DNA of 37,764 bases, taken from positions 1 to 37,764 of the forward strand of contig JANLWV010000190.1 in NCBI GenBank assembly GCA_031364765.1, read 5' to 3'. This DNA comes from Vicinamibacteria bacterium (GTDB taxonomy: Bacteria > Acidobacteriota > Vicinamibacteria > Fen-336 > JAGNNV01). The stretch's first letter is position 1. Every line of letters begins with the position of its first letter. Of this stretch, positions 151 to 30,195 are shown in pieces. The translations under genes were made by a program, and so were the position numbers. The notes under the pieces are model-generated. The model worked only from the letters and a program-made list of their open reading frames with translations, was not told where the DNA came from and ran no database searches.

Positions 151-1605
151 CTACGCTGCTCCGGGGTCGGGGGTCTCGGCGCCCTTCTTGGGAGCGATAA
201 GACCGAGCGCCTTCATCTTCTTGTAGAGATACGAGCGTTCGACGCCCAGCGCTTCGGCGGTGCGGCTCATGTTCCCGTGCCAGGCCTCGTGCTTGCTGGC
301 GATGTATCGACGCTCGAAATCCTCGCGCGCGAGGGCCAGCGTTTCGAAGGCGCCCAAGGTCGTAGGGGACGGGATGGGGGTCGCAGCCCCAGGAGGAGCA
401 CCGCTCGCCGGCGCCGACCCGGCCACGGGTTCTGCCGGGCCGAGGGGGGATCGCAGAACGCCGAGATCGCTCACTTCCACGACGTCGCCCTGGGCCATGA
501 TAACGAGGCGTTCGACCATGTTCCGAAGCTCGCGGACGTTGCCGGGCCAGTCATGGGCCACGAGCACCTCCATGGCCCCGGGCGAATAGTCCTTGATGTG
601 CCGCCCGTATTCCGCCGCATAGCCCTTGCTGAAATGCCTCACCAGCATCGGAATGTCTGAGCGGCGTTCCCGCAGGGGTATCACCTGGATCGGAATCACG
701 TTGAGCCGGAAGTACAGGTCATCGCGGAACGCGCCCTTGCGAATCTCGTCCTCGAGGTTCTTGTTGGTCGCGGCGATCACGCGCACATCGACGGTGACGC
801 TCGCGGACCCGCCGACGGGCTCGATCTTCTGCTCCTGCAGAACGCGGAGAACCTTCGCCTGGGTCTTGAGGGTCATATCGCCGATTTCGTCGAGAAACAG
901 CGTGCCGCCGTCCGCGATTTCAAACTTGCCCTTCCGCGAGGCGGTGGCGCCGGTAAACGAGCCCTTGGCATGACCGAAGAGCTCGCTCTCAATCAACTCC
1001 TCGGGAATCGCCGCACAGTTCACTTCGACGAATGGACCCCCGCTGCGCAAGCTCTGCTGGTGGATGCCACGCGCCACGAGCTCCTTCCCCGTGCCGTTTT
1101 CGCCGGTGATCAGAACACGCCCGTTGCTGGGAGCGGCCTGGGCGATCACCCGGAGAAGCTCCTTGATGGCTTCGCTTCCGCCCACAATCTGGTGCTTGTA
1201 CTCGGCCTCGGCCTTGAGGGCGCGGACCTCCTGTTCCAGTTTCCGGCGGCGCAGCGAGTTCGAAACCGCGAGCAGGATGCGCTCGAGCGAAAGAGGCTTC
1301 TCGATGAAGTCGGCCGCCCCCAGGCGAACGGCTTTGACCGCCGTTTCGACCGTGCCGTGACCGGAGATCACGACCACCGGAAGGTCGGGATCGATCGCCT
1401 GAATGCGCATCAGCGTTTCGATGCCGTCGATTCCGGGGAGCCAGACATCGAGAAGGGCCAGTTCATAGCGGTTCGATTCGACCGCCTTCACCCCAGCCTC
1501 GCCGGTCTCCACGGCGTCGACCCGATACCCCTCGTCGGACAGAATCCCCGAGAGTGAGGCCCGGACCCCGGCTTCGTCGTCAACGATCAGGATGCGTTCG
1601 CGCAT
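151..1605 (-). CDS. sigma-54-dependent two-component response regulator (NtrC/Fis family)
   Basis: 484-aa ORF. N-terminal receiver domain (ILIVDDE ... LLDVWLPGIDG). Central AAA+ sigma-54 activator domain (Walker A GENGTGKE, GAFTGA-type loop present as GSFTGA, Walker B TLFLDEIG). C-terminal Fis-type HTH (NMSRTAEALGVERSYLYKKMK). Confidence 0.93.
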   Translation of the reverse strand: MRERILIVDDEAGVRASLSGILSDEGYRVDAVETGEAGVKAVESNRYELALLDVWLPGIDGIETLMRIQAIDPDLPVVVISGHGTVETAVKAVRLGAADFIEKPLSLERILLAVSNSLRRRKLEQEVRALKAEAEYKHQIVGGSEAIKELLRVIAQAAPSNGRVLITGENGTGKELVARGIHQQSLRSGGPFVEVNCAAIPEELIESELFGHAKGSFTGATASRKGKFEIADGGTLFLDEIGDMTLKTQAKVLRVLQEQKIEPVGGSASVTVDVRVIAATNKNLEDEIRKGAFRDDLYFRLNVIPIQVIPLRERRSDIPMLVRHFSKGYAAEYGRHIKDYSPGAMEVLVAHDWPGNVRELRNMVERLVIMAQGDVVEVSDLGVLRSPLGPAEPVAGSAPASGAPPGAATPIPSPTTLGAFETLALAREDFERRYIASKHEAWHGNMSRTAEALGVERSYLYKKMKALGLIAPKKGAETPDPGAA

Positions 1606-1853: not shown

Positions 1854-1882
1854 CTCAATTATGACGAGAGATGTCATATATG
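1854..1882. promoter_or_regulatory. 29-bp imperfect palindrome CTCAATTATGACG-agaga-TGTCATATATG (copy A), candidate operator upstream of the RND efflux operon
   Basis: Read directly from the sequence. Both arms (13 + 11 nt) are identical to a second copy at 10207-10235, while the 5-nt spacer differs (agaga vs cggac). The core is the inverted repeat TATGAC-N7-GTCATA. It lies 67 bp upstream of ATG 1949. Confidence 0.55.
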
Positions 1883-1948
1883 GAGGCGTAGCGTCTTCCG
1901 CATTGCATTTTCGAGGCGTCGTCCTCGTCAACTAAGGAAACCGCAGCC

Positions 1949-3136
1949 ATGACTTTCAGCGAAGAGGGCATCGACTCCATGGGGGAACCTGGTCAGCGAA
2001 CCATGGACCGAATGAGCAGAATCGGCGGGACATGGGTTCTCTTATGCCTCCTCCTCAGCGCGTGCAAGGGCGGCGGTCCCCAGGGCGGAGCGGGCGGGCC
2101 GGGTGGCGGCATGCCCCCAAGCGCCGTGGAGATCGTGAATCTGACGCTCAAGCCCGTCGAGCAGACGACCGAATTCGTGGCCACGCTGAAGTCGCGTCGC
2201 TCGAGCACGATTCAACCTCAGGTGGAGGGATTCATCACCCGCATTGCCGTTCGCAGCGGGGAGAGGGTGGCTCAAGGCGCCACGCTCTTCGAAGTGGACT
2301 CGGCGCCCCAGCAGGCGGTCCTCGCCGCGCAACAATCGATGCGGGCGATGCGCGCCGCGGAAGTGGAATACGCGCAGCAGCAAGCGAGGCGAACCCGAAA
2401 ACTGTTTGAAGCGGGCGCGGCCAGTCAGCGCGACGCCGAGGAGGCCGACACGGCCTTGCGCACAAGCGAGGCCCAATTGAAGGCGGTCGACGAACAGGTC
2501 CTCCAACAGCGCGCTGAACTCGGTTATTACAAGGTCACGGCGCCTTCGGCGGGTGTGGTGGGCGACATCCCGGTCCGCATCGGCGACCGGGTGACGAACT
2601 CCACGGTGCTCACGACGGTCGATGAGAACAACGCTCTCGAGGTCTATGTCAGCGTGCCGGTGGCGCAGGCCCCGGGCCTGAAGGCCGGACTTCCCGTGCG
2701 GATCATGGACGATTCGGGCCAGGTGCTCGCCACCAACGGGATCACATTCGTTTCGCCCAACGTGGATGACGCGACCCAGACCGTTCTGGCCAAGGCGACG
2801 CTCGTCGAGGGGCGCGGGATGTTCCGCGCCGACCAGTTCGTCAAGGTGCGCATCGTCTGGCGCTCCGATCTCGGACTCACCATTCCGGTGACCGCGGTCA
2901 TGCGCGTCAACGGCCAGTATTTTGCCTTCGTGGCCGAGAAGGACGACAAGGGCGGGCTCGTGGCCAAGCAACGGGCGGTGCAGCTCGGCGACATCATCGG
3001 AAACGACTACGTCGTGCGCGACGGCCTGAAGCCCGGCGACCAACTGATCGTCTCGGGCCTGCAAAAGATCGGCGACGGCGCGCCGGTGAGGGCCCAAGCA
3101 CCCGCCCCCGCCCCGGAACCGACGAAGGGTCTGTAG
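1949..3136 (+). CDS. efflux RND transporter periplasmic adaptor subunit (MFP, AcrA/HlyD_D23 family)
   Basis: 395-aa ORF with a lipoprotein-like signal (WVLLCLLLSAC), a coiled-coil hairpin segment (QQ..MRAAEVEYAQQQARR...AQLKAVDEQV) and C-terminal beta-barrel/MP domains typical of adaptors. An AAGGA SD lies ~8 nt before ATG 1949. ATGs at 2003/2012 are alternative starts. The gene ends with TAG TAG, 5 nt before the pump gene. Confidence 0.9.
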   Translation: MTFSEEGIDSMGEPGQRTMDRMSRIGGTWVLLCLLLSACKGGGPQGGAGGPGGGMPPSAVEIVNLTLKPVEQTTEFVATLKSRRSSTIQPQVEGFITRIAVRSGERVAQGATLFEVDSAPQQAVLAAQQSMRAMRAAEVEYAQQQARRTRKLFEAGAASQRDAEEADTALRTSEAQLKAVDEQVLQQRAELGYYKVTAPSAGVVGDIPVRIGDRVTNSTVLTTVDENNALEVYVSVPVAQAPGLKAGLPVRIMDDSGQVLATNGITFVSPNVDDATQTVLAKATLVEGRGMFRADQFVKVRIVWRSDLGLTIPVTAVMRVNGQYFAFVAEKDDKGGLVAKQRAVQLGDIIGNDYVVRDGLKPGDQLIVSGLQKIGDGAPVRAQAPAPAPEPTKGL

Positions 3137-3141
3137 TAGCC

Positions 3142-6100
3142 ATGCTCGCTGACGTCTTCATCCGCCGGCCCGTCCTGTCGACGGTCTGCTCCCTGCTGAT
3201 CATTCTCGCGGGCGCGGTGTCGATTCCGACCCTGCCGATCGCCCGCTACCCTGACCTCGCACCGCCCTCGCTCACCGTCTCCGCGGTCTACACCGGCGCC
3301 AACGCCCAGTCGGTGGAGAGCGCGGTGACCACACCACTCGAGCAGGCGATCAATGGCGTCGAGGGGATGACCTACATCACCTCGTCCAGCACCAACAGCG
3401 GCTTCTCCACCATCAACGTCACGTTCGACATCGACCGGGATATTGACCTCGCCGCCGTGGACGTGCAGAACCGCGTGAACCAGGCGCTCGGCCGGATGCC
3501 CGCCGATGTCCGAACCAACGGCATCTCGGTATTCAAGAACACCTCGGGTTGGATGGGCGGCATGGGCTTCTTTTCGAAGGACAACCGCTACAGCAGCCAG
3601 TTCATCAGCAACTACATCGATCTGTACGTGCGGGACGCGGTCAAACGCGTCAAGGGCGTGGGCGACGTCATCATCTTCGGCGAACGCAAGTTCGCCATGC
3701 GGCTGTGGCTCGACCCGGCGAAGCTCGCGGGGCGGCGCCTCACCGCGGGCGACGTGCTCGGCGCCCTGCGTGAACAGAACGTGCAGGTGGCGGCGGGCGC
3801 TTTGGGCGACGCCCCGTCATCGCCCCAACAGATGTTCACCATCAGCGTGCGGGCCATGGGCCGGCTGTCGGAAGCGAGTCAGTTCGAGGACGTCGTGATC
3901 AAGGCGGGCAAAGGTGGCGCGCTGGTGCGGGTCAAGGATGTCGGCCGGGTCGAACTGGGCGCCGAGACCTACTCGTCCAATCTCCGGTTCCTGGGCCTGG
4001 AGGCGCAGGGTATCGGCGTCACTCTCCTCCCCTCCGCCAACGCCATCGACGTGTTCCAGGGCGTCATGGCGGAGATGGCCGTGCTCGAGAAGAGTTTTCC
4101 GCCCGGGCTCGAATGGCGCATGGCGTTCGACAACGTCGTGGTCGTGCGGGAGTCCATCATTGAGGTGGTGAAGACTCTCGCCGAGGCGATCGCCCTGGTC
4201 ATCCTGGTGATGTTCCTGTTTCTCCAGAACTGGCGGAGCACCATCATTCCGGCCATCACCCTTCCGGTTTCGCTGATCGGCACCTTCTCGTTCATCAAGC
4301 TGTTCGGTTTCTCCATCAACACCCTGACCCTTTTCGGCATCGTTCTCGCCACCGGGATCGTGGTCGACGACGCCATCGTGGTGATCGAGAATATCGAACG
4401 CCACATGAGGGAGTTCAAGAAGTCGGCGCATCGGGCGTCGATCGACGCCATGCGCGAGGTCTTTGGCGCGGTGGTCGTGATTGGCCTTGTCCTGGTGGCG
4501 GTCTTCGTTCCGGTGGCTTTCTTCCCCGGTGTCACCGGCCGGCTGTATCAGCAGTTCTCCCTGACCATCGCCTTCGCCGTGGTTCTGTCGGTGTTCAACG
4601 CCGTCACCCTGACTCCCGCCCTTTCCGCCCTGCTTCTCGACAAGGAGAGTCACACCCACGGCCGGTTCTTCACCGCCTTCAACCGCGTGGTGGATAACGG
4701 TACTTCGGCTTACTCGCGCCTGGTCCGAAGGGTCCTTGGACTTCGCGCGGCCATGATCGTGCTGTTCGTGGGCGGCCTCCTGGCCACCTGGGGCGTCTAT
4801 CGCGTGGTTCCGTCGGCTTTCGTTCCCGACGAAGACGAGGGTTACTTCATGGTCCTGGTGCAAGCGCCTGCCGGCGCGTCGCTCGAGTACTCCACGAACA
4901 TCGCCAAAAAGGCCGAGGAGATCATCACAAAGGATCCCGACGTCCTGGCCGCGTTCTCGGTCATGGGCTTCAGCTTTTCGGGGGCCGCGCCCAACAACGG
5001 GATGATCTTTGCGCCGCTCAAGGAATACGCCCAGCGCCGAGGGCCTGAGCACTCGCTCAGCGCCGTCATCAACCGTCTGCGTGGTCCTCTGTTCGGCATT
5101 CCGGGCGCCTTCATCGTCGCCTTCCCCCCTCCGGCGATTCAGGGTCTGGGCGCCTTCGCCGGGTTCCAGTTCGAGCTGCTCGATCAGACCGGCGCCGAAA
5201 GCGTAGACGGCCTGGCCGCCGCGATGAACGGCTTGATCGGAGAGGCGAGCCAGGGCGCCCAGGTGCAGGGCCTCTTCAGCAGCTTCAGCGCAGCCGATCC
5301 GCAGTTGCTCGTCGACATCGACCGCGACAAGGCGCGCAGTCTCGGCCTGCCGCTTTCGGAAGTCACCGACGCCCTTCAGGTGTTCCTGGGGTCGCAGTAC
5401 GTGAATGACTTCGACTTCAACAACCGGGCCTACCGCGTCTATGTCCAGGCCGACCAGCAATTCCGGTCGAGCCCCTCCTCCCTCCGGCAGCTCTACGCGC
5501 GTGCTTCGAGCGGCGACATGGTCTCGCTGGACTCGGTGGTCAAGGTCAAGGAGACGACGGCTCCCTCGGTCATCAGCCATTTCAACCTGTTCCGCTCCGT
5601 GTCGATCTCCGGCAGCCCCGGTCCCGGCGTGAGCTCGGGTCAGGCCCTGGTCGCGATGGAGGATCTGGCGAGCAAGCTCCCGACCGGTTTCACGTTTGCC
5701 TGGTCCGGGCAGTCGCTCGAGGAGATCAAGGCGGGCGCTCAGGCCGGCGCCATCTTCGCCTTGAGCGTCATCCTCGTCTACCTCGTCCTGGCCGCCCAGT
5801 ACGAATCGTTCGTGCTGCCTTTTATCATTCTGCTCGGCGTGCCGCTCGCCATCTTCGGCGCCCTGTCGGCTCAGTGGGTCCGCGGTTTCACCAACGATGT
5901 TTTCTGCCAGGTGGGCCTGATCCTTCTGGTTGGACTCGCCGCGAAGAACTCGATTCTGATCGTGGAATTCGCGGAGCAGCTGCGCGAGCGCGGTCTGTCG
6001 ATTGTGGACGCCGCGGTGGAGTCTTCGCGTATCCGCCTCCGTCCGATCCTGATGACATCGTTCGCGTTCATTCTCGGCGTGCTGCCCCTGGCCTTCGCGA

Positions 6101-7575
6101 CGGGTGCTGGTGCTTCGGGGCGCAACTCGATCGGCACCACCGTCGCGGGCGGCATGCTGGCCTCCACCTTTTTGTCCATCGTTTTCATTCCCGTTCTCTA
6201 CGTGGTCATTCGGACACTCGCCCCCGGACGCGGGCGAAGGGCGCATGACGAGGGTGAAGGTGAAGGCGGGACCGGCACGCTGAGTTCGGGCAGGCCCGGC
6301 CCGGGAACCGCCGGCGTCGCGATCCTGATCATCCTCTCGCTGATAGCACCCGCGGGTGCTCAGACCGCGGTGGAATCGCCCAAGGAGTCCCTCAGCTTTG
6401 AACAAGCGGTCGCCCGCGCGGTCGAGAAGAACCCAACGGTGGCGATCGCCGCCACCAACATCCTGCGTTCGCAGGGCCTGCTCCAGCAGCTCCGCTCGTC
6501 TGGTCTTCCGCGCGTGACCGCGAGCATCAACAACACGACGCTCGACCAGGCTTTTGGCTTTGATGCCGGGATTGTCCAGCCCAAAAACCAGTCGGTGTTT
6601 GGCCTGTCCGTGTCGGTGCCGATTCTGGCCGCCGCGCAGTGGGCGGCGAACGCGCAGGCGAAGGATCGGGTCGAAGTCTCCCGCCTGTCGAGCGCCGATA
6701 TCCGCCGGCAGGTGGCGGTGAGTGCCGCCGCCGCGTACCTCTCCGTCATCACCCAGAGGCGTCTCGTGCAGATCGCCGAACGCTCCCTCGACACGGCGCG
6801 CGCCCAGTTCGACTACAACCGGACGCGCCGCGAGGGCGGCCTGGGCAGCCGGCTGAATGAACTGAGGTCCGGCCAGGTGGTCTCGACTGACGAGACCCTG
6901 GTCGAGACCTTCAAGCTGGGCCTGCGCCGATCGCAGGAAGCGCTCGGCATCCTGCTCGGCGAAGACGGGCCGGTCGACGCGACCGGCGAGCCCACGTTCG
7001 ATATCTCGTCCGCCGACATCACCGACGACTGGATGTCCTCCCGCTCGGACATGCTCCTGCTCGCGGCGGAGCAGCGCGCCGCCCAGAACGTCCTCAAAGG
7101 CAGCTCGAAAGACTGGTGGCCCACGGTCAAGATGTCGTTCGATCCGCAGTACCTGACGCCTTCCGGTCTCTTTCAGCGCTCGAAGAGCTGGCGCCTCTCG
7201 TTCGAACTCTCGCAAACTCTCTACAACGGCGGCGAGCGCGGCGGCGTCCAGCTTCAGCGTCAGGCGAACGCCCAGGCGGCGGACTTCGCTATCGCCCAGC
7301 GCCAGATTCAGGCCCGGGCGGAGATCCGGAATGCGCGCACCGCGGTTGAGGCCTATGGCCGCGTGCTGCTGAGCGCTCGGCTCGCCGCCGAACAGGCGAA
7401 CGAAGTTCTGAAGATCACGATCACCGCGTTCGACGCGGGCGCCTCCACCAATATCGAAGTCATCGAGGCCCAGCGCTCCGCTCGCGACGTTGAAACCGCC
7501 CTCGCACAATCGGAGGATGCGCTGCGACAGGCCCAGTTCGACCTGCTGGTGGCCCTCGGCCGGTTCCCGAAATAG
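3142..7575 (+). CDS. RND (AcrB/HAE1-type) inner-membrane efflux pump fused in frame to a TolC-like outer-membrane factor
   Basis: Single 1477-codon ORF. Residues 1 to ~1023 have the canonical RND layout (N-terminal TM, two large periplasmic loops, 12-TM pattern, motifs such as VVDDAIVVIENIERH and AAKNSILIVEFA). Residues ~1074-1477 look like an OEP/TolC family protein (LSFEQAVARAVEKNPTV..., two tandem coiled-coil/beta repeats, C-terminal QAQFDLLVALG). Between them is a charged linker and a hydrophobic stretch VAILIILSLIAPAGA (6316-6360). There is no stop and no in-frame ATG/GTG/TTG at the junction. Confidence 0.88.
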   Translation: MLADVFIRRPVLSTVCSLLIILAGAVSIPTLPIARYPDLAPPSLTVSAVYTGANAQSVESAVTTPLEQAINGVEGMTYITSSSTNSGFSTINVTFDIDRDIDLAAVDVQNRVNQALGRMPADVRTNGISVFKNTSGWMGGMGFFSKDNRYSSQFISNYIDLYVRDAVKRVKGVGDVIIFGERKFAMRLWLDPAKLAGRRLTAGDVLGALREQNVQVAAGALGDAPSSPQQMFTISVRAMGRLSEASQFEDVVIKAGKGGALVRVKDVGRVELGAETYSSNLRFLGLEAQGIGVTLLPSANAIDVFQGVMAEMAVLEKSFPPGLEWRMAFDNVVVVRESIIEVVKTLAEAIALVILVMFLFLQNWRSTIIPAITLPVSLIGTFSFIKLFGFSINTLTLFGIVLATGIVVDDAIVVIENIERHMREFKKSAHRASIDAMREVFGAVVVIGLVLVAVFVPVAFFPGVTGRLYQQFSLTIAFAVVLSVFNAVTLTPALSALLLDKESHTHGRFFTAFNRVVDNGTSAYSRLVRRVLGLRAAMIVLFVGGLLATWGVYRVVPSAFVPDEDEGYFMVLVQAPAGASLEYSTNIAKKAEEIITKDPDVLAAFSVMGFSFSGAAPNNGMIFAPLKEYAQRRGPEHSLSAVINRLRGPLFGIPGAFIVAFPPPAIQGLGAFAGFQFELLDQTGAESVDGLAAAMNGLIGEASQGAQVQGLFSSFSAADPQLLVDIDRDKARSLGLPLSEVTDALQVFLGSQYVNDFDFNNRAYRVYVQADQQFRSSPSSLRQLYARASSGDMVSLDSVVKVKETTAPSVISHFNLFRSVSISGSPGPGVSSGQALVAMEDLASKLPTGFTFAWSGQSLEEIKAGAQAGAIFALSVILVYLVLAAQYESFVLPFIILLGVPLAIFGALSAQWVRGFTNDVFCQVGLILLVGLAAKNSILIVEFAEQLRERGLSIVDAAVESSRIRLRPILMTSFAFILGVLPLAFATGAGASGRNSIGTTVAGGMLASTFLSIVFIPVLYVVIRTLAPGRGRRAHDEGEGEGGTGTLSSGRPGPGTAGVAILIILSLIAPAGAQTAVESPKESLSFEQAVARAVEKNPTVAIAATNILRSQGLLQQLRSSGLPRVTASINNTTLDQAFGFDAGIVQPKNQSVFGLSVSVPILAAAQWAANAQAKDRVEVSRLSSADIRRQVAVSAAAAYLSVITQRRLVQIAERSLDTARAQFDYNRTRREGGLGSRLNELRSGQVVSTDETLVETFKLGLRRSQEALGILLGEDGPVDATGEPTFDISSADITDDWMSSRSDMLLLAAEQRAAQNVLKGSSKDWWPTVKMSFDPQYLTPSGLFQRSKSWRLSFELSQTLYNGGERGGVQLQRQANAQAADFAIAQRQIQARAEIRNARTAVEAYGRVLLSARLAAEQANEVLKITITAFDAGASTNIEVIEAQRSARDVETALAQSEDALRQAQFDLLVALGRFPK

Positions 7576-7671
7576 GCGAGGTCAGGGGCCGGCGTCGCTG
7601 CGGCCGGGACCATGCGAAGATTGTCGACCCCGTTCGGGCAGACCGACCCATCCACATTCCGGAGAAAAACC

Positions 7672-8562
7672 ATGGAACCAAAAAACGCCGGCGACTTCGA
7701 TCAGGGCGTGTATGACCTCTTCGACAAATTCGTTCACGGCGACATCGATCGACGAGGCTTCATAGATGGCGCGGGCAAGTTCAGCGTTGCCGGCATGACC
7801 GGCGGCATGATCCTTGACGCCCTCACGCCTCGCTTCGCGGAGGCGCAGGTGGTCGCCAAGGACGACAAGCGGATCGTGACGGAGTTCGTCGAGTACCCCT
7901 CTCCGCAGGGCAATGTGAAGATGCGCGGATACCTGGTGCGGCCCGCCGACAAGAAGGGAAAGCTGCCCGGAGTTCTCGTGATTCACGAGAACCGCGGCCT
8001 CAACCCCCACATCGAGGACATCGCGCGTCGAGTCGCTCTCGAGGGCTACATGGCCTTCGCTCCCGACGCGCTCTTCCCCCTCGGCGGCTATCCCGACGAC
8101 GAGGACAAGGCTCGCGAACTGTTTCCGAAGCTCGAGCAGCCGAAGACGCGCGAAGACTTCGTGGCCGCGGTCGCCTGGCTCAAGGGCCGCGGCGACTGCA
8201 CGGGCAAAGTCGCGGCCGTCGGTTTCTGTTACGGCGGCGGCATTGCCAACATGCTGGCCACTCGTATTCCAGATCTCGCCGGCGCGGTCCCTTTCTACGG
8301 TGGGGCGCCGCCCGCTGACGACGTCAAGAGCATCAAGTGCCCGATGCTCATCCATCACGCTGAGAAAGACGAGCGACTGGTCGCCGCCTGGCCGGCCTAC
8401 GAGGAAGCTCTCAAGGCGAACAAAGTTCGATACGAGGGTTTCATCTACCCGGGCGCCCAGCACGGCTTCAACAACGACACCACGCCGCGCTATGACAAGG
8501 CCGCCGCTGATCTGGCCTGGAAGCGGACGGTCGAGTTCTTCCAGAAGAACCTGAAGGGCTAG
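7672..8562 (+). CDS. dienelactone hydrolase family protein with Tat-type signal
   Basis: The ORF is open from 7612. ATG 7672 is preceded by GGAG. A twin-arginine motif DRRGFIDGAG is followed by a hydrophobic stretch and AEA-Q. DLH fold motifs are present (VLVIHENRGL, nucleophile motif GFCYGG, C-terminal HGF). Confidence 0.85.
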   Translation: MEPKNAGDFDQGVYDLFDKFVHGDIDRRGFIDGAGKFSVAGMTGGMILDALTPRFAEAQVVAKDDKRIVTEFVEYPSPQGNVKMRGYLVRPADKKGKLPGVLVIHENRGLNPHIEDIARRVALEGYMAFAPDALFPLGGYPDDEDKARELFPKLEQPKTREDFVAAVAWLKGRGDCTGKVAAVGFCYGGGIANMLATRIPDLAGAVPFYGGAPPADDVKSIKCPMLIHHAEKDERLVAAWPAYEEALKANKVRYEGFIYPGAQHGFNNDTTPRYDKAAADLAWKRTVEFFQKNLKG

Positions 8563-8600: not shown

Positions 8601-9200
8601 ATGAGCGAAGTCACGGCGTCGGCGTTCCTGGCCATGGTCGCGGGACGGCGCGGCCATTTCCAACTTGAATCCGGCCACCACGGCCGGCTCTGGCTCGATC
8701 TCGATGCTCTCTTCGCGGAGGCGAAGCGGATCGAGCCTTTCGTTGCCGCCCTGACCTCCGCAGTTCGCCCTTACGAAGTCACCGCGGTTTGCGGGCCTCT
8801 CCTCGGAGGCGCGTTCCTGGCTCAATGGGTGGCGCGGGAACTCAGCGTAACGTTCTGTTTCACCGAACGAGTGATGGGAGCGAAGACGAGTGGCTTGTAT
8901 CAGGCCAGCTATCGGTTGCCCAAGGCGTTCGTGGAACGGATTCGAGGCGCGCGGGTCGCCATCGTGGACGACGTGATGAGCGCCGGCTCGGCGCTCCGAG
9001 GAACCTACGAGGAACTCCAGTTGCACGGGGCCATTGTGGTGGTCGCCGGAACCCTGCTCTCCCTCGGGTCAACCGGAGCGGATTTTTTCGCCGAGGCTGG
9101 CGTTCCGGTCGAGGCTGTAACCCGGGATGAATATGAACTGTGGCCACCCCAAACCTGTCCGCTCTGCGTCGCGGGTCAGCCCCTCGAACCACGGCATTAG
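8601..9200 (+). CDS. type I phosphoribosyltransferase family protein (PyrE/orotate PRTase-like)
   Basis: 199-aa ORF with GGAG just upstream. N-terminal GHFQLESGHHG motif as in PyrE-like proteins. PRPP-binding loop VAIVDDVMSAGSA. Its stop overlaps the convergent yafY-like stop (TTAG at 9197-9200). Confidence 0.8.
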   Translation: MSEVTASAFLAMVAGRRGHFQLESGHHGRLWLDLDALFAEAKRIEPFVAALTSAVRPYEVTAVCGPLLGGAFLAQWVARELSVTFCFTERVMGAKTSGLYQASYRLPKAFVERIRGARVAIVDDVMSAGSALRGTYEELQLHGAIVVVAGTLLSLGSTGADFFAEAGVPVEAVTRDEYELWPPQTCPLCVAGQPLEPRH

Positions 9201-10180
9201 GGCGCCTTGCTTCTCTTCCTCGGCGCGAGTCGGCCGCGTTCAGCCAGGAGGGCCACATCTCCGGCCACCCGATGGCGAAGACGCTCGGGTGAGAGAACCT
9301 CTGCCCTGGGACCAAAACCGAGGGCCACGAAGCAGGCCTGATCCTCATCATCGAACTCCATGTCTCGCGTGACCCACCCGTCTTTCCGGGCGCGACCCGC
9401 GGCTCCGGGCGGCGACGTGCTACGCCACATGGCCAGTCGTTCCGCGGCCCGCGGCTCCACGCGGAAAGTAGCGGGGTAGCGCTTTCGCCCCTCGCGTAAC
9501 TGGTCCGTCGATGACTTCCAGTGAGCGGCGAGATCAAAACCCGGAGGACGGTCGCTCCGCGCGTCCAGGAGAAACGCCTGATCCATCCGGGAAACTCGGA
9601 AGGTGCGGAACCCCTCGTTCGTGTTGGCCACCAGGTACCAGACGCTGCCCTTGGCCACGAGCCCCAGGGGATCGACGGTGCGCTCGGTGCGCTCGCCATC
9701 CGGCTTGCGATAGTGAAAGGCGAGCTTTCGATCGCGCGCGACGGCCTCCTGGACGACCGGGAGGGCAAGGACGGTCTCGGTCAGTCCGCGCCAGCCGGTG
9801 GTGTCGATATGGAGGCGCTGCCGGATCGAGTTGGCCTGCGCGCGCATGGATATGGGGAGTGACGCCACGAGCTTCCCCAGGGCGCGCTCGGCGGCGGCAG
9901 CGAGTCGTGGATCGCCAAGCACCCGGGGTTGCGCCATGAGAAGCGCGCGCAGTTCCGCTTCGTCGAGACCGGGCACATGGGTGCGCCAGTCTTCGTCCAG
10001 CTGCCATCCTCCGCGCGAGCCGCGCAGCGCGTACACCGGAACACCAGCGGCGCTGAGCGCTTCCATGTCCCGATGCACGGTGCGGCCGGAAACCTCGAGA
10101 CGCTTCGCCATCTCGCGCCCGGTGACGCGGCCGCGAGACTGGAGGAGCAAAAGGGCGGAGAGAAGGCGATCGGCTTTCAT
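9197..10180 (-). CDS. YafY-family transcriptional regulator (wHTH + WYL + WCX domains)
   Basis: 327-aa ORF. N-terminal DeoR/HTH_11-type wHTH (RLLSALLLLQSRGRVTGREMAKRLEVSGRTVHRDMEAL). Central WYL domain including the literal WYL (KGSVWYLVAN). C-terminal extension typical of the family. Confidence 0.9.
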   Translation of the reverse strand: MKADRLLSALLLLQSRGRVTGREMAKRLEVSGRTVHRDMEALSAAGVPVYALRGSRGGWQLDEDWRTHVPGLDEAELRALLMAQPRVLGDPRLAAAAERALGKLVASLPISMRAQANSIRQRLHIDTTGWRGLTETVLALPVVQEAVARDRKLAFHYRKPDGERTERTVDPLGLVAKGSVWYLVANTNEGFRTFRVSRMDQAFLLDARSDRPPGFDLAAHWKSSTDQLREGRKRYPATFRVEPRAAERLAMWRSTSPPGAAGRARKDGWVTRDMEFDDEDQACFVALGFGPRAEVLSPERLRHRVAGDVALLAERGRLAPRKRSKAP

Positions 10181-10206
10181 GCTTTCCTGATTCCAGAGTC
10201 TGTGGC

Positions 10207-10235
10207 CTCAATTATGACGCGGACTGTCATATATG
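10207..10235. promoter_or_regulatory. 29-bp imperfect palindrome CTCAATTATGACG-cggac-TGTCATATATG (copy B), candidate autoregulatory operator of the WYL regulator
   Basis: The arms are identical to copy A at 1854-1882 and the spacer differs. It starts 27 bp upstream of the yafY-like ATG (10180, minus strand). On the minus strand it contains a CATAAT -10-like hexamer. It also abuts the 5' truncation point of the TonB-receptor remnant. Confidence 0.55.
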
Positions 10236-10481
10236 CGCATGATTGGCGCCCCCCTCCGCGCGGCCACGTTCACCTTCGATCCCGAGCTGCCGGCCTACAG
10301 CATCGTCAACGCCCGCGTCGGGGTCATCCGCGACAAATGGGACCTGGCTCTTTACGCCAGCAACCTGACCGACGAACGGGCGCTGCTGGCCCTCGACCAG
10401 GAACGCGGAACCCGGGCCCGCGTGGGCTACCTCGCCAACCCGCCCCGGTCGTTCGGCATCACCGCTCGCCTCAAGTTCTAA
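10233..10481 (+). pseudogene. 3'-terminal remnant of a TonB-dependent receptor gene
   Basis: 82-codon ORF whose product looks like only the last beta-strands of a TBDR barrel (YSIVNARVGV..DLALYASNLTDE..GYLANPPRSFGITARLKF, with a terminal aromatic residue). The frame is closed by TGA at 10215. There is no plug domain, signal peptide or upstream barrel, and the upstream DNA is the yafY-like promoter. Confidence 0.6.
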
Positions 10482-19012: not shown

Positions 19013-19088
<76 letters not shown>

Positions 19089-25331: not shown

Positions 25332-27098
25332 ATGACCGACGTGATCATGCCGCAGATGGGCGAATCCATCGCGGAAGGCACCGTCACAAAGTGGCTCAAA
25401 AAGGTCGGCGACGCGGTCAAACGGGATGAACCGCTCTTTGAGATATCCACCGACAAAGTCGACGCGGAGATTCCGGCGCCCATTGCCGGCGTGCTCACGG
25501 AGATCCTGATTCAGCCGGGCACCACGGTCGAAGTCGGCAGCGTGGTGGGAAGAATCGGCGGCGCCGGCGCTGCGGTCGCGTCCCCGGCTCCGACGGCGGC
25601 CGCCCCGGCTGCCCGTCCCCAGACACCCCCGGCCGTCCCGGCCACGGCTCCGATTCCCACATACGCACCCGCTCCGCCTAAACCTCCGGTCGTGGCCGCG
25701 GCGCCTGTAGCTCCGTTTCCCGCGCCCGCCCCCGCTCCGCCTAAGCCTCCGGTCGTGGCCGCGGCGCCTGCAGCTCTGTTTCCCGCGCCCGCACCCGCTC
25801 CACCGAAACTTCCCGCCGTTGCTGCAGCCCCCGCTGCCGCGCCAGCCGACGACAGTTCTTCGGCTGTCAACTCCGTTGCCGAGCCCTCTCGCGAAGGTAT
25901 GACTTCCAGCGAGCTCCGAATGGCGCGGAGTTCTCCGGTCGTCCGGAAGATTGCGCTCGAGTACGGAGTCGACATCAACGAGGTACGCGGAACGGGTCTC
26001 GGTGGCCGGGTCACTCGCGAAGACATCCTGTCCTATGTTGAGACGCGGACGCACGCCACGATCCGCCAAGACGCGCCGGCGGCGGCGCCCGCGGCCGCCG
26101 CTTCCCATGCACCTCCGCCCCCCGTGGCCGCGCGCACGCCGGAAGCCCCGCCTCCCGTCCCGGCCGTCGCCCCTCCTCCCGTCCCGGTCGTAGCCCCGGT
26201 CCCGGTCCCGGCAGCAGCCCCTCCTCCCGTCCCGGCCGCAGCCACGCTTCCGGTCCGAGCCGTAGCCCCACCCCCGGTTCCCAGAGTTCCCCCGGTGGCT
26301 CCGCCCCCGATGCCCGCCCTCCGTTCGGCCGCAGTGGCGATCGGCGTGCCGGACGCGCCGCCATCGACAAACACTGGGCAAACCCCGGCGCCCAGGTCCA
26401 CCGGGCCGCGAGTGGACGTGGTCCCGATGTCGCCCATCCGGAAGAAGACGGCCGACCACATGGTCCTCTCGAAGCGGACCTCGGCTCATGTCTCGACGGT
26501 CTGGGAAGTCGACATGACCCAGGTGGCCATGCTTCGGGCGAAGTACAAGCCAGCCTACCTGGAGCGCAGCAACGTGAATCTCACGTATACGCCGTTCATC
26601 GTGAAGGCGGCGACCGATGCCCTCAAGATATTCAAGGTCCTCAACGCGAGTGTGGAAGGCGACTCCATCGTCTACCGCAGGGACATCAATATCGGCATAG
26701 CCGTGGCCCTCGACTGGGGCCTCATTGTGCCGGTGATCTCCGCAGCGGACGAGAAGAACATCCTCGGTCTCGCCCGGGCGGTGAACGATCTTGGTGAACG
26801 GGCGCGCACCAAGAAACTAAGAGTCGAGGAAGTCCAGGGTGGGACCTTCACGATCACGAATCCGGGAGTCTTTGGTTCCCTTTTCGGCACGCCCATCATC
26901 TCTCAGCCGCAGGTTGCCATCCTCGGCGTGGGCACCATAGAGAAGCGTCCGGTGGTTCGTGAAGACGCCATCGCCATTCGGACCATGGCCTACTTCTGTC
27001 TGACCTTCGACCATCGCATCGTGGACGGATCGGAAGCCGACAAGTTCATGGCCCACTTCAAGAACAGCCTCCAGAACTTCGACGAATCGGCACTCTAG
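25332..27098 (+). CDS. dihydrolipoamide acyltransferase (E2) of the 2-oxoacid dehydrogenase complex, with unusually long repetitive Pro/Ala linkers
   Basis: ATG 25332 is preceded by GAGG. Lipoyl domain (MPQMGESIAEGTVTKWLKKVGD...EISTDKVDAEIPAP), E3/E1-binding domain (SSPVVRKIALEYGVDINEVRGTGLGGRVTREDI) and catalytic domain with DHRIVDG. The ORF is open from 25254, but the N-terminal homology starts at 25332. Confidence 0.92.
   Translation: MTDVIMPQMGESIAEGTVTKWLKKVGDAVKRDEPLFEISTDKVDAEIPAPIAGVLTEILIQPGTTVEVGSVVGRIGGAGAAVASPAPTAAAPAARPQTPPAVPATAPIPTYAPAPPKPPVVAAAPVAPFPAPAPAPPKPPVVAAAPAALFPAPAPAPPKLPAVAAAPAAAPADDSSSAVNSVAEPSREGMTSSELRMARSSPVVRKIALEYGVDINEVRGTGLGGRVTREDILSYVETRTHATIRQDAPAAAPAAAASHAPPPPVAARTPEAPPPVPAVAPPPVPVVAPVPVPAAAPPPVPAAATLPVRAVAPPPVPRVPPVAPPPMPALRSAAVAIGVPDAPPSTNTGQTPAPRSTGPRVDVVPMSPIRKKTADHMVLSKRTSAHVSTVWEVDMTQVAMLRAKYKPAYLERSNVNLTYTPFIVKAATDALKIFKVLNASVEGDSIVYRRDINIGIAVALDWGLIVPVISAADEKNILGLARAVNDLGERARTKKLRVEEVQGGTFTITNPGVFGSLFGTPIISQPQVAILGVGTIEKRPVVREDAIAIRTMAYFCLTFDHRIVDGSEADKFMAHFKNSLQNFDESAL
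25688..25850 (+). repeat. 63-bp (21-codon) tandem repeat, ~2.6 copies, inside E2 linker 1
   Basis: Units start at 25688, 25751 and 25814. Units 1 and 2 differ at 4 of 63 positions by my alignment. They encode PAPPKPPVVAAAPxAxFPAPA. Confidence 0.85.
26145..26288 (+). repeat. degenerate 24-bp (8-codon, APPPVPxx) tandem repeat inside E2 linker 2
   Basis: GCCCC(T/G)CCTCCCGTCCCGG-type units at 26145, 26169, 26193 and 26217, with more degenerate units following. Confidence 0.6.
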
Positions 27099-28523: not shown

Positions 28524-29989
28524 GCGCCCTCACGTCCATGGGCGTGGGCGAGCTCGCGGCGGCGATCAGAGGAAAGAAGGCTTCGGCGAGCGAGGTCGTG
28601 GAGGCGCATCTTTCGCGCATCGCCAAGAAGGATGGCGGGATCGGAGCGTTTCTAGCCCTCTCCGACGACGCGGCTCGGGCGGAGGCGAGAACCATCGACG
28701 CGCGGCTCGCTCAAGGCGAAGACCTCGGACCGCTGGCCGGCGTGCCCATCGCGGTCAAGGATGTGATGCATGTCCGCGGACTCCCCACGACCTGCGGTTC
28801 AAAGATTCTCAAGGGCTTCCAGCCGCCCTATGAAGCGACGGCGATCACGAGACTGAAGAGCGCGGGCGCCATCGTTCTCGGGAAACTCAACATGGATGAG
28901 TTCGCGATGGGTTCCTCCAACGAGAACAGCGCCTTTGGGCCGGTTCGGAATCCCTGGGACGTGACGCGGGTGCCCGGAGGGTCGTCGGGAGGGTCGGCGG
29001 CGGCGGTCTCCGCAGGCTTCGCCGCCCTGGCTTTAGGGTCGGATACCGGCGGATCGATTCGGCAGCCGGCGGCTTTTTGCGGTGTCGTCGGTCTCAAGCC
29101 CACCTACGGTCGCGTCAGTCGATATGGCCTGGTCGCGTTTGCGTCCTCGCTCGACCAGATTGGTCCTCTGACAAGGTCCTGCGGTGACGCGGCCCTGGCG
29201 CTGTCGGTCATCGCCGGGCAGGACGTGCACGACGCTACGAGCAGTCCGCGAGCCACGGACGACTACGGTGCTTCGCTGTCTCAACCGACAAGGGGACTCC
29301 GAGTGGGCGTCCCCCGCGCCTTCCTCAAAACCGGGGTCGACGCCGGCGTCCTTGCGGAGTTCGACCGGACGATCGCCGCGCTCCAGGCGGACGGAGCGGA
29401 GGTTGTCGACATAGCGCTGCCGAACGCGCCCCACGCCATTGCCACCTACTACCTGGTGGCCACGGCGGAGGCCTCGTCGAATCTCGCGAGATTTGACGGC
29501 GTGAGGTACGGTCTGCGGGTCGATTCCGAGGCCGCCCGCGCGACCCTCAAGGACATGTACGGAGAAACCCGGGATGCGGGGTTTGGCCCCGAGGTCAAGC
29601 GCCGGATCATTCTCGGGACTTTCGTCCTCTCCTCGGGCTACTACGATGCCTACTATCTCCGGGCTCAAAAGGTCCGGACCCTCATCCGTCGCGACTTCGA
29701 GACCGCGTTTGCCTCGTGTGACGTGATCGCAACGCCCACCACACCGTCGACCGCGTTCAAGCTCGGAGAGAAGACGGCGAACCCGCTTGAGATGTACCTC
29801 GCGGATGTCTTCACGGTACCCGCCAATCTCGCTGGCGTGCCGGGGATCTCGGTGCCGTGCGGCGTCTCGAATAGCCTTCCGGTAGGGATGCAGTTCGTGG
29901 GTCCGGCATTCGCGGAAGCCACACTCCTCCGAGCAGGTGGCGCGGTGGAACGGCTGATGGGCGTCGGCGCGAACCGTCCGCCGCTCTAG
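28520..29989 (+). CDS. gatA: Asp-tRNA(Asn)/Glu-tRNA(Gln) amidotransferase subunit A
   Basis: 489-aa ORF with the amidase signature ([42 protein letters not shown]) and typical GatA N- and C-termini. Confidence 0.95.
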
Positions 29990-30195
29990 TGTCCCGCCTC
30001 GTAAGTACGCGACACATGGGAGCGCCGATGCATCCCGGATCGCTGCGTTGCTCGTGGCCCAAGGCCAGGCTTGCGCTTCCCCAAGGGGAAGCTTCGCGCT
30101 CGTTGCATATGCTGGATATGCGGCCTCCTCGACGCCTTGCCCTCCAGGCGCCTCGACACTCGCATGTGCCACGTACCTACGAGGCGGGACACTAG
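29986..30195. repeat. 210-bp intergenic palindromic (MITE-like / long-hairpin) element bounded by CTAG
   Basis: 29986-30028 pairs with 30195-30153. The first 18 bp are perfect. Across 43 positions there are 37 Watson-Crick pairs, 5 A.C/C.A and 1 G.G. A central perfect hairpin GCTTCCCC-aa-GGGGAAGC lies at 30075-30092. The termini CTAG contain the stop codons of gatA (29987-29989) and of the minus-strand DUF2062 gene (30192-30194). Confidence 0.8.

Follow-up and report, generated by a model that had tools for sequence, protein, structure and literature searches.

WYL-domain transcriptional regulators are widespread, and the operator is known for few of them. Those with known operators or targets serve in DNA-damage responses, in phage defence and, in one case, in c-di-GMP-dependent colonisation. 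The Acidobacteriota are a dominant phylum in soil and hard to cultivate, and to our knowledge almost none of their transcription factors has been characterised. Here we describe a WYL regulator and its predicted operator in DNA from a Vicinamibacteria bacterium of this phylum (assembly GCA_031364765.1, contig JANLWV010000190.1, 37,764 nt); this whole stretch is referred to as the window. Two copies of a palindrome are present in it, copy A upstream of a multidrug-type efflux operon and copy B upstream of the regulator gene. From the sequence data we estimate a probability of about 0.8 that dimers of the WYL protein bind both copies and that the protein controls its own gene as well as the efflux-hydrolase operon.

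Among the described systems, DriD, a WYL activator of Caulobacter crescentus, recognizes the consensus ATACGAC-N7-GTCGTAT with the conserved core CGxC-N7-GxCG; within this core, G2 is read by Arg37 and the partner G of C4 by Arg41, while Glu40 makes contact with C1 (PMC10853764). Its promoters have no -35 element, and its sites overlap the place of that element, with a constant distance to the -10; driD itself has a bidirectional promoter (PMC13004042). The WYL activator SiwR acts on divergent genes of the DinB superfamily via a 19-bp palindrome (PMC10693628). The actinobacterial activator PafBC is a heterodimer or fused pair with a non-palindromic motif and binds only together with RNA polymerase (PMC10853764). 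The well-studied WYL repressors bind palindromes in their own promoters and sense single-stranded DNA (ssDNA) (PMC11662680).

In the window, the pattern CTCAATTATGACG-N5-TGTCATATATG occurs twice on the plus strand and in the same orientation, at 1854-1882 (copy A) and 10207-10235 (copy B), as a preliminary description had reported. The two copies are identical at all 24 arm positions and differ at four of the five spacer positions (AGAGA vs. CGGAC), again in agreement with that description. If four differences are placed at random among 29 positions, the probability that all of them fall into the 5-bp spacer is 5/23751, or ~2e-4. A search of the window with up to 3 mismatches returned copies A and B as the sole matches, and the core TATGAC-N7-GTCATA with up to 2 mismatches was likewise present at these positions alone. 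Matches to the 29-bp palindrome were absent from 100 dinucleotide-preserving shuffles (chance expectation 0). While the 29-bp identity stands, the unit conserved across the family is only 25 bp long (1857-1881 in copy A, 10210-10234 in copy B) and reads ATATATGACA-N5-CGTCATAATT on the minus strand of the window. The outer C and GAG, which stretch the identity between the copies to 29 bp, are not family-conserved. Between copy A and the ATG of the first efflux gene (1949) lie 66 nt, and 26 nt separate copy B from the ATG of the WYL gene (10180, minus strand), so that the distances given earlier are correct. Both start codons are backed by conserved N-termini of orthologues.

The conservation of the operator was analysed in 80 loci with WYL orthologues (55-86% identity) from species-representative genomes, 1.27 Mb in total. 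Nearly all are from Acidobacteriota (Vicinamibacteria, Thermoanaerobaculia, Terriglobales and Bryobacterales), and one bin is labelled Gemmatimonadaceae. The pattern ATATATGACA-N5-TGTCATAATT is located within 300 nt upstream of the WYL start in 73 of the 80 loci, with the AATT end always directed towards the WYL gene. Positions 1-10 and 16-25 of the 25-bp site are near-invariant, and positions 11-15 contain almost no information. Conserved arms around a free spacer, which the preliminary description had taken as evidence against a simple duplication, are thus the rule across the 73 orthologous loci. With a position weight matrix (PWM), in which copy A scores 37.5 bits and copy B 40.3 bits (training median 42.8), 79 hits were obtained in the 1.27 Mb and none in shuffled loci. 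Most hits (73/79) are in the standard orientation and at most 330 nt upstream of a WYL gene. Two are found ~400 nt upstream in the same orientation (L032, L036), and another two upstream but inverted, with the WYL gene on the ATAT side (L010, 9598-9630; L015, 9914-9946). The remaining two do not precede a WYL gene: L053 has a weak second site, and in L005 the site of the efflux operon lies 8.7 kb downstream.

An exact-pattern scan of metagenome contigs gave at least 121 sites on at least 120 stretches. Among the matches listed, the WYL gene is on the AATT side in 103 of 121, and 11 have no recognised gene on either side. Nine of these 11 are in AT-rich contigs (GC 0.30-0.42), and the gene-less AT-rich matches are read here as chance matches. 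Taken over the genome hits and the listed metagenome matches, the motif is a constant companion of the WYL gene and therefore not a generic repeat. The preliminary description had named such a repeat, or absence from relatives, as evidence that would speak against regulation; instead, all but two of the 79 PWM hits precede a WYL gene, shuffles gave none, and beside the WYL-side copies in 73 of the 80 loci the efflux-side copy recurs in L005 and L189.

Two local peculiarities were observed in the upstream regions. Past the inverted operator of L015 a TAACCT hexamer is found at a distance of 6 nt. In L032, L036, L038 and L047 arrays of 7-nt tandem units (GAGAACT or GAGACCT; other units in L047) directly precede the WYL start and displace the operator from the start codon, by 137-150 nt in L038 and L047 and by ~400 nt in L032 and L036.

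The features of the window to which the following paragraphs refer are:

151-1605, minus strand: sigma-54 NtrC-type response regulator
1854-1882, no strand assigned: operator copy A; the core at 1857-1881 reads AATTATGACG AGAGA TGTCATATAT on the plus strand, with the ATAT side towards the efflux operon
1889-1894, plus strand: TAGCGT, predicted -10 of the efflux-operon promoter, 7 nt past the core after GGAGGCG, with a predicted transcription start near 1901
1949-3136, plus strand: periplasmic adaptor (MFP) of a resistance-nodulation-division (RND) system, first gene of the predicted target operon (Pfam HlyD_D23/HlyD_3; TIGR01730)
3142-7575, plus strand: HAE1-type RND permease fused to a TolC-like outer-membrane factor (OMF), 1477 aa (Pfam ACR_tran at residues 3-1024, OEP to residue 1473; NF000282, TIGR01844)
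7612-8562, plus strand: dienelactone-hydrolase / YghX-family hydrolase in the same direction as the pump genes, syntenic in L005, L006, L007 and L189
8601-9200, plus strand: phosphoribosyltransferase-domain protein, last co-directional gene, with a 4-nt overlap with the 3' end of the WYL gene
9197-10180, minus strand: regulator of winged helix-turn-helix (wHTH)-WYL-WCX type, 327 aa, predicted binder of both copies (Pfam HTH_11, WYL, WCX)
10197-10202, minus strand: predicted -10 hexamer CAGACT of the WYL promoter, 7 nt past the core; the same CAGACT is present in L002, L003, L005 and L006
10207-10235, no strand assigned: operator copy B, 25-bp core at 10210-10234, with the AATT side towards the WYL gene
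10236-10481, plus strand: C-terminal remnant (~80 last residues) of a TonB-dependent receptor, adjoining copy B

The flanks of the operator are asymmetric in >90% of the loci, with ATAT towards the target gene and AATT towards the WYL gene (1857-1860/1878-1881 and 10210-10213/10231-10234 in the window). For the analysis of these flanks 72 loci were aligned on the motif. On the ATAT side three flank positions are conserved to 83-91%, and the outward strand reads TAnnnT from 7 nt past the site in 65 of the 72 loci. At the mirror 7-nt offset on the AATT side, nAnnnT is found in 51 of them. The hexamer TAGCGT of the window has its counterpart in TAGCCT at the same offset in L005 and L189. A -35-like hexamer 16-18 bp upstream of either -10 is impossible, because that stretch is the free spacer. 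A consensus promoter scan found no sigma-70 -35/-10 consensus pair in either intergenic region of the window, and in the aligned loci the target-side promoters have no TGn extension. When the -10-like hexamers are taken as positions -12 to -7, the operator reaches from about -44 to -20, with its centre near -32 of both outward promoters. What the preliminary description called a classic autoregulation position is better described as the -35 position of two outward-facing promoters. In the window, the side of copy A that points away from the operon has no good -10 hexamer, and the remnant side of copy B has none. Hence, each copy presumably kept only the promoter that it needs.

Other promoter assignments were discarded. 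A -10 within the half-site (CATAAT in TGTCATAATT), which would result in simple occlusion, was set aside; TAnnnT and nAnnnT 7 nt outside are far more sharply conserved. The ATGACA of the distal half-site was rejected as a -35 element, since its spacer to the -10 would be 22 bp. A sigma-54 promoter upstream of the MFP gene, to be used by the NtrC-type neighbour, was considered as well, and neither GG-N10-GC nor a -24/-12 element was seen on reading the window and L005.

Across the 73 genome loci with the motif, the divergent neighbour of the WYL gene is of the DinB family in 54 cases, belongs to an MFP-RND operon in 7, encodes a DJ-1/PfpI protein in 4 and is of another kind in 8. In L008, L009, L012, L019, L024, L029 and L037 an orthologue of the MFP-RND-OMF operon of the window is divergent from the WYL gene across a single operator. 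Compared with the window, these seven loci show 55-61% identity in the MFP and 71-75% in the RND permease, and TAnnnT is at the 7-nt offset in each of them. Their WYL proteins form one clade and that of the window belongs to another in a rough neighbour-joining tree. With regard to the pump itself, permease and OMF are separate, overlapping open reading frames (ORFs) in the seven loci; the fusion is kept in L005, L006 and L189 (73-77% identity over linker and OMF), and the linker of the fused protein retains a hydrophobic stretch resembling a signal peptide.

Stand-alone operators upstream of an MFP gene were found at copy A of the window, in L005 and in L189. L005, whose WYL protein is 81% identical, shares its gene order with the window: response regulator, operator, MFP, RND-OMF, hydrolase and a convergent WYL gene with its own operator. 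The 13.9-kb locus L189 contains response regulator, operator, MFP, RND-OMF and hydrolase; the WYL gene is absent from it. An alignment of the three MFP upstream regions shows conservation of the arms, of TAGCnT 7 nt past the site, of the element CGAGG-N6-CCTCG and of the ribosome-binding site, and divergence of the spacer and of the flank on the response-regulator side. Arms and -10 kept while spacer and far flank diverged indicate a phylogenetic footprint rather than a neutral duplicate. The ATAT/AATT asymmetry is kept at all three sites, where the AATT side has no promoter. The preliminary description had proposed that the WYL regulator controls itself and the efflux operon 8 kb away, and operator conservation at both gene sets supports such a regulatory link. 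Whether the operon includes the phosphoribosyltransferase gene is uncertain, because this gene is absent from the syntenic L005.

The closest relatives, L002 and L040 (84-86% identity), have a DinB-type neighbour, which the window has lost. The receptor remnant marks the rearrangement by which the ancestral divergent gene next to copy B was removed; L006 has a longer truncated receptor ORF of 398 aa (440-1636), with whose end the remnant shares 87% identity.

Further elements were noticed between operator and MFP start. The sequence CGAGG-N6-CCTCG (1912-1927 in the window) is part of the predicted 5' untranslated region of the MFP gene; its stem is kept and its loop varies among the window, L005 and L189. 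As an RNA hairpin it was rejected, with a fold no better than that of shuffles (z 0.5) and no Rfam match. It could be a second protein-binding site. In L009 and L024 the same interval contains AT-rich palindromes resembling Fur boxes (e.g. AATAATGATTCTAATCCGTAATTATT) and a conserved TATAGTAGAAGGTTG element. These palindromes hint at an extra, possibly iron-dependent regulation of the efflux operon.

The regulator has the architecture of the WYL family, with Pfam HTH_11 at residues 5-59, WYL at 140-202 and WCX at 234-309, all above the cut-offs. DriD is likewise a homodimer-type wHTH-linker-WYL-WCX protein of 327 aa. A family profile aligns with it over the full length (E 1.8e-15); in a direct phmmer search of the PDB with the window protein DriD was not found. 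The best fold matches of the predicted structure (predicted local distance difference test score, pLDDT, 72.7) are PafBC and DriD (E 1e-12 to 1e-14, 20-26% identity). Matches to BrxR/CapW are weaker (E ~1e-7, 13-15% identity), and the family profile search gave no BrxR/CapW hit at E < 0.01. The operators have the GAC-N7-GTC geometry in common (ATACGAC-N7-GTCGTAT in DriD, ATATGAC-N7-GTCATAA here), so the likeness to DriD named in the preliminary description agrees with the published consensus. The bases G2 and C4, read by Arg37 and Arg41 of DriD, are retained here in TGAC-N7-GTCA, and the aligned residues R33 and R37 are invariant in the orthologue alignment. Six of the nine mapped ssDNA-contact residues of DriD are conserved (Y157, R167, Y182, R192, F194 and R195); a tenth contact, Arg288, is outside the mapped set.

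Promoter logic also corresponds: the features described for DriD, an operator over the -35 position at fixed distance to the -10, promoters without -35 element and a bidirectional regulator promoter, are predicted for the loci described here. From a published oligonucleotide and its -35-optimised variant we infer that the didA box is centred near -31, within 1 bp of the value obtained here. DriD differs in its distant sequence, in C at core position 1 (T here), in Glu40 (His here) and in phylum; moreover, the spacer is not AT-rich here. Its targets are didA, recA, recJ, bapE and dnaG, whereas the genes adjoining the operator here encode DinB-family, DJ-1 and RND efflux proteins. A possible link between protein and operator is seen in L020, L021 and L033. 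In these loci the operator is symmetrically changed to TATGCCA..CGGCATA (GAC to GCC), and they alone carry the recognition helix RTAYRD instead of RTVHRD. The changed helix position aligns with a base-contacting residue of DriD.

The other systems resemble the window in different respects. For SiwR (Mycobacterium smegmatis MSMEG_1359) the likeness is one of gene arrangement: an imperfect palindrome between the -35 and -10 regions, a divergent DinB-superfamily target, corresponding to the divergent DinB-family gene in 54 of the 73 motif-bearing loci, and a convergent neighbour that overlaps the stop codon of the regulator gene, as in the window. The window differs in having a receptor remnant instead of a DinB-type neighbour and in the reuse of the operator before the efflux operon. 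PafBC, the best match here in sequence and fold, also acts at promoters without a -35 element, but is heterodimeric or fused and its site is non-palindromic, in contrast to what is predicted for the window regulator. BrxR and CapW are wHTH-WYL-WCX proteins with a palindromic operator in their own promoter, as here, and ssDNA sensing was shown for CapW. They belong to phage-defence systems, whereas no BREX, CBASS or other defence operon is adjacent to the WYL gene here; in addition, the operator described here is at a rigid distance from the -10 of promoters without -35 element.

In the mechanism that we propose, each wHTH domain would read one TATGAC(A) half-site and the 5-bp centre would remain unread. 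The operator would occupy the -35 position of promoters with a -10, 7 nt past the site, as their sole hexamer. A single operator would serve two back-to-back promoters in most Acidobacteriota, that of the WYL gene on the AATT side and that of a stress or detoxification gene on the ATAT side, usually of the DinB family and sometimes MFP-RND-OMF or DJ-1/PfpI. The window presumably contains this module twice: copy B would keep the WYL-side promoter only and copy A the target-side promoter only, the latter driving the MFP / RND-OMF / hydrolase operon. The protein is most likely an activator, and on the model of DriD and SiwR it may bind or activate when its WYL domain is loaded, plausibly by ssDNA; the outcome would be a coupling of genotoxic or xenobiotic stress to efflux. 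Judging from DriD, SiwR, PafBC and CapW, ssDNA is the default expectation for the effector; the detoxification and efflux targets leave room for another ligand.

Activation is favoured in this mechanism because of the missing -35 element, the rigid spacing between operator and -10, the closer relation to known activators than to repressors and the SiwR precedent; provided that the protein binds both copies, we consider activation somewhat better than an even bet. The main rival is a WYL protein that works as a repressor, like BrxR and CapW, occludes the -35 region of both promoters and is released on ligand binding. The operator is indeed inside the RNA-polymerase footprint of both promoters, and own-promoter palindromes and ssDNA sensing are features of the studied WYL repressors (PMC11662680). 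Furthermore, one dimer easily represses two back-to-back promoters, while their simultaneous activation is harder to picture. However, promoters without a -35 element (16-18 bp from the -10) and without a target-side TGn should be weak unaided, and activators in contact with the polymerase typically show a rigid spacing such as the 7 nt in 65/72 loci. In sequence and fold the protein is closer to the activators DriD and PafBC than to BrxR and CapW, SiwR as the functional analogue with DinB targets is an activator, and defence genes are not found nearby. Repression is therefore regarded as unlikely, although it deserves serious consideration.

The remaining rivals concern the origin of the two copies and the identity of the binder. 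If a recent local duplication or rearrangement had left the copies as a neutral relic, copy B alone would be functional and copy A would not control the efflux operon. Copies A and B have clade-specific or unconstrained bases in common, namely C at position 16, a flanking C and the flanking GAG, which suggest common descent or concerted change. In each of the two genomes that contain two copies, these agree in otherwise unconstrained flanking bases (GAG in the window, CG in L005), and the WYL region was repeatedly rearranged in relatives. Against a relic stand the MFP upstream regions of L005 and L189, which keep arms and -10 while spacer and flank diverged, as expected under selection, the seven further loci with the same operon directly under a shared operator, and the chance of ~2e-4 for four differences confined to the spacer; together these make it quite improbable. 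It is highly improbable that another protein, e.g. the sigma-54 response regulator or a TetR or PadR protein, binds the site and the site merely co-occurs with WYL genes. The response regulator does accompany copy A or its counterpart in the window, L005 and L189, but it is absent from ~170 other motif loci (metagenome loci among the matches listed included), in which the WYL gene is the constant neighbour; moreover, the operator variant tracks the change in the WYL recognition helix, and upstream of the MFP gene no sigma-54 element was seen. Finally, a block of genes is enclosed by two direct copies, one of which, copy B, adjoins a truncated receptor gene, as might be expected if the palindrome were a recombination site or a terminal repeat of a mobile element bracketing the 8.3-kb efflux-WYL segment. 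Yet the window contains no recombinase, integrase or transposase gene, and its GC content does not shift across the segment. Between recombination partners the spacers have to match, whereas those of copies A and B are different at 4 of 5 positions. The ~170 other loci (again including those among the metagenome matches listed) have a single site beside the WYL gene at a fixed distance to the -10. On the absent recombinases, the mismatched spacers and this constant promoter context the reading as a mobile element or att site was rejected; we consider it extremely improbable.

Several observations weigh against dimeric binding by the WYL protein and autoregulated activation as proposed above. 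L006, a close relative of the window, has no operator at its WYL gene, and L007, another one, retains the proximal half-site only (~1780-1842); both have the same downstream hydrolase. Consequently, autoregulation is dispensable in some lineages. In L007 the ORF upstream of the WYL gene is co-directional with it. These losses and the remnant next to copy B show that the WYL upstream region is unstable and was repeatedly rearranged in the clade of the window; despite this instability, copy B is retained exactly up to its edge. With respect to the protein, the position of DriD Glu40 is taken by the invariant His36, in step with T1 for C1 in the operator, and Ser172, Arg189 and Tyr240 of DriD correspond to D161, S179 and L228. 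The structure model is of low confidence in the wHTH domain (pLDDT 30-64, residues 1-100), so only its fold-match ranking was used. L020, L021 and L033 represent one clade, and the covariation of helix and operator therefore counts as a single evolutionary event. The comparison with the -10 of didA is our own reading of the published oligonucleotide and not a statement of that paper. An operator over the -35 region is also compatible with repression, and the source organism is known from metagenome assemblies only.

The rest of the window contains transporter and metabolic-enzyme genes, and homologues assign the window to the Vicinamibacteria within the Acidobacteriota. Defence genes were not found in it, where PADLOC matched generic WYL models only. 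A tRNA gene is located at 19013-19085 on the plus strand (Rfam RF00005, 61.7 bits). Tandem repeats of 63 nt and 24 nt at 25647-26293 are inside a 2-oxoacid dehydrogenase E2 gene and probably encode Pro/Ala-rich linkers. At 29986-30031 / 30150-30195, 3' of an amidase gene, there is an inverted repeat with arms of 46 nt that are 85% complementary and 118 nt apart.

DriD already provides the precedent for the class of protein, for operator geometry and for promoter logic, and SiwR that for the DinB association. New are the operator as defined here, its phylum-wide distribution and the class of targets; full-text literature searches returned neither a paper connecting WYL regulators to RND efflux nor one on a characterised WYL regulator from Acidobacteria. 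For a large WYL clade of the Acidobacteriota a precise operator and promoter architecture is thus predicted, together with control of DinB-family, DJ-1 and RND-efflux genes. The pair of His36 and T1 and the variant with Tyr36 and a GCC operator represent a small natural experiment on the specificity of DriD-type helices. In a wider and still doubtful interpretation, these loci could be parts of a phylum-wide stress regulon of the Acidobacteriota, whose DriD-like WYL sensor directly turns on functions of export and detoxification (RND-OMF pump and hydrolase, DinB-family and DJ-1/PfpI proteins) instead of DNA repair. One dimer at about -32 of two mirror-image promoters would then either couple ssDNA sensing to the efflux of genotoxins or respond through a WYL domain retuned to a xenobiotic other than nucleic acid. 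If the protein does sense ssDNA like DriD and SiwR, genotoxic stress would be linked directly to the efflux of drugs or toxins.

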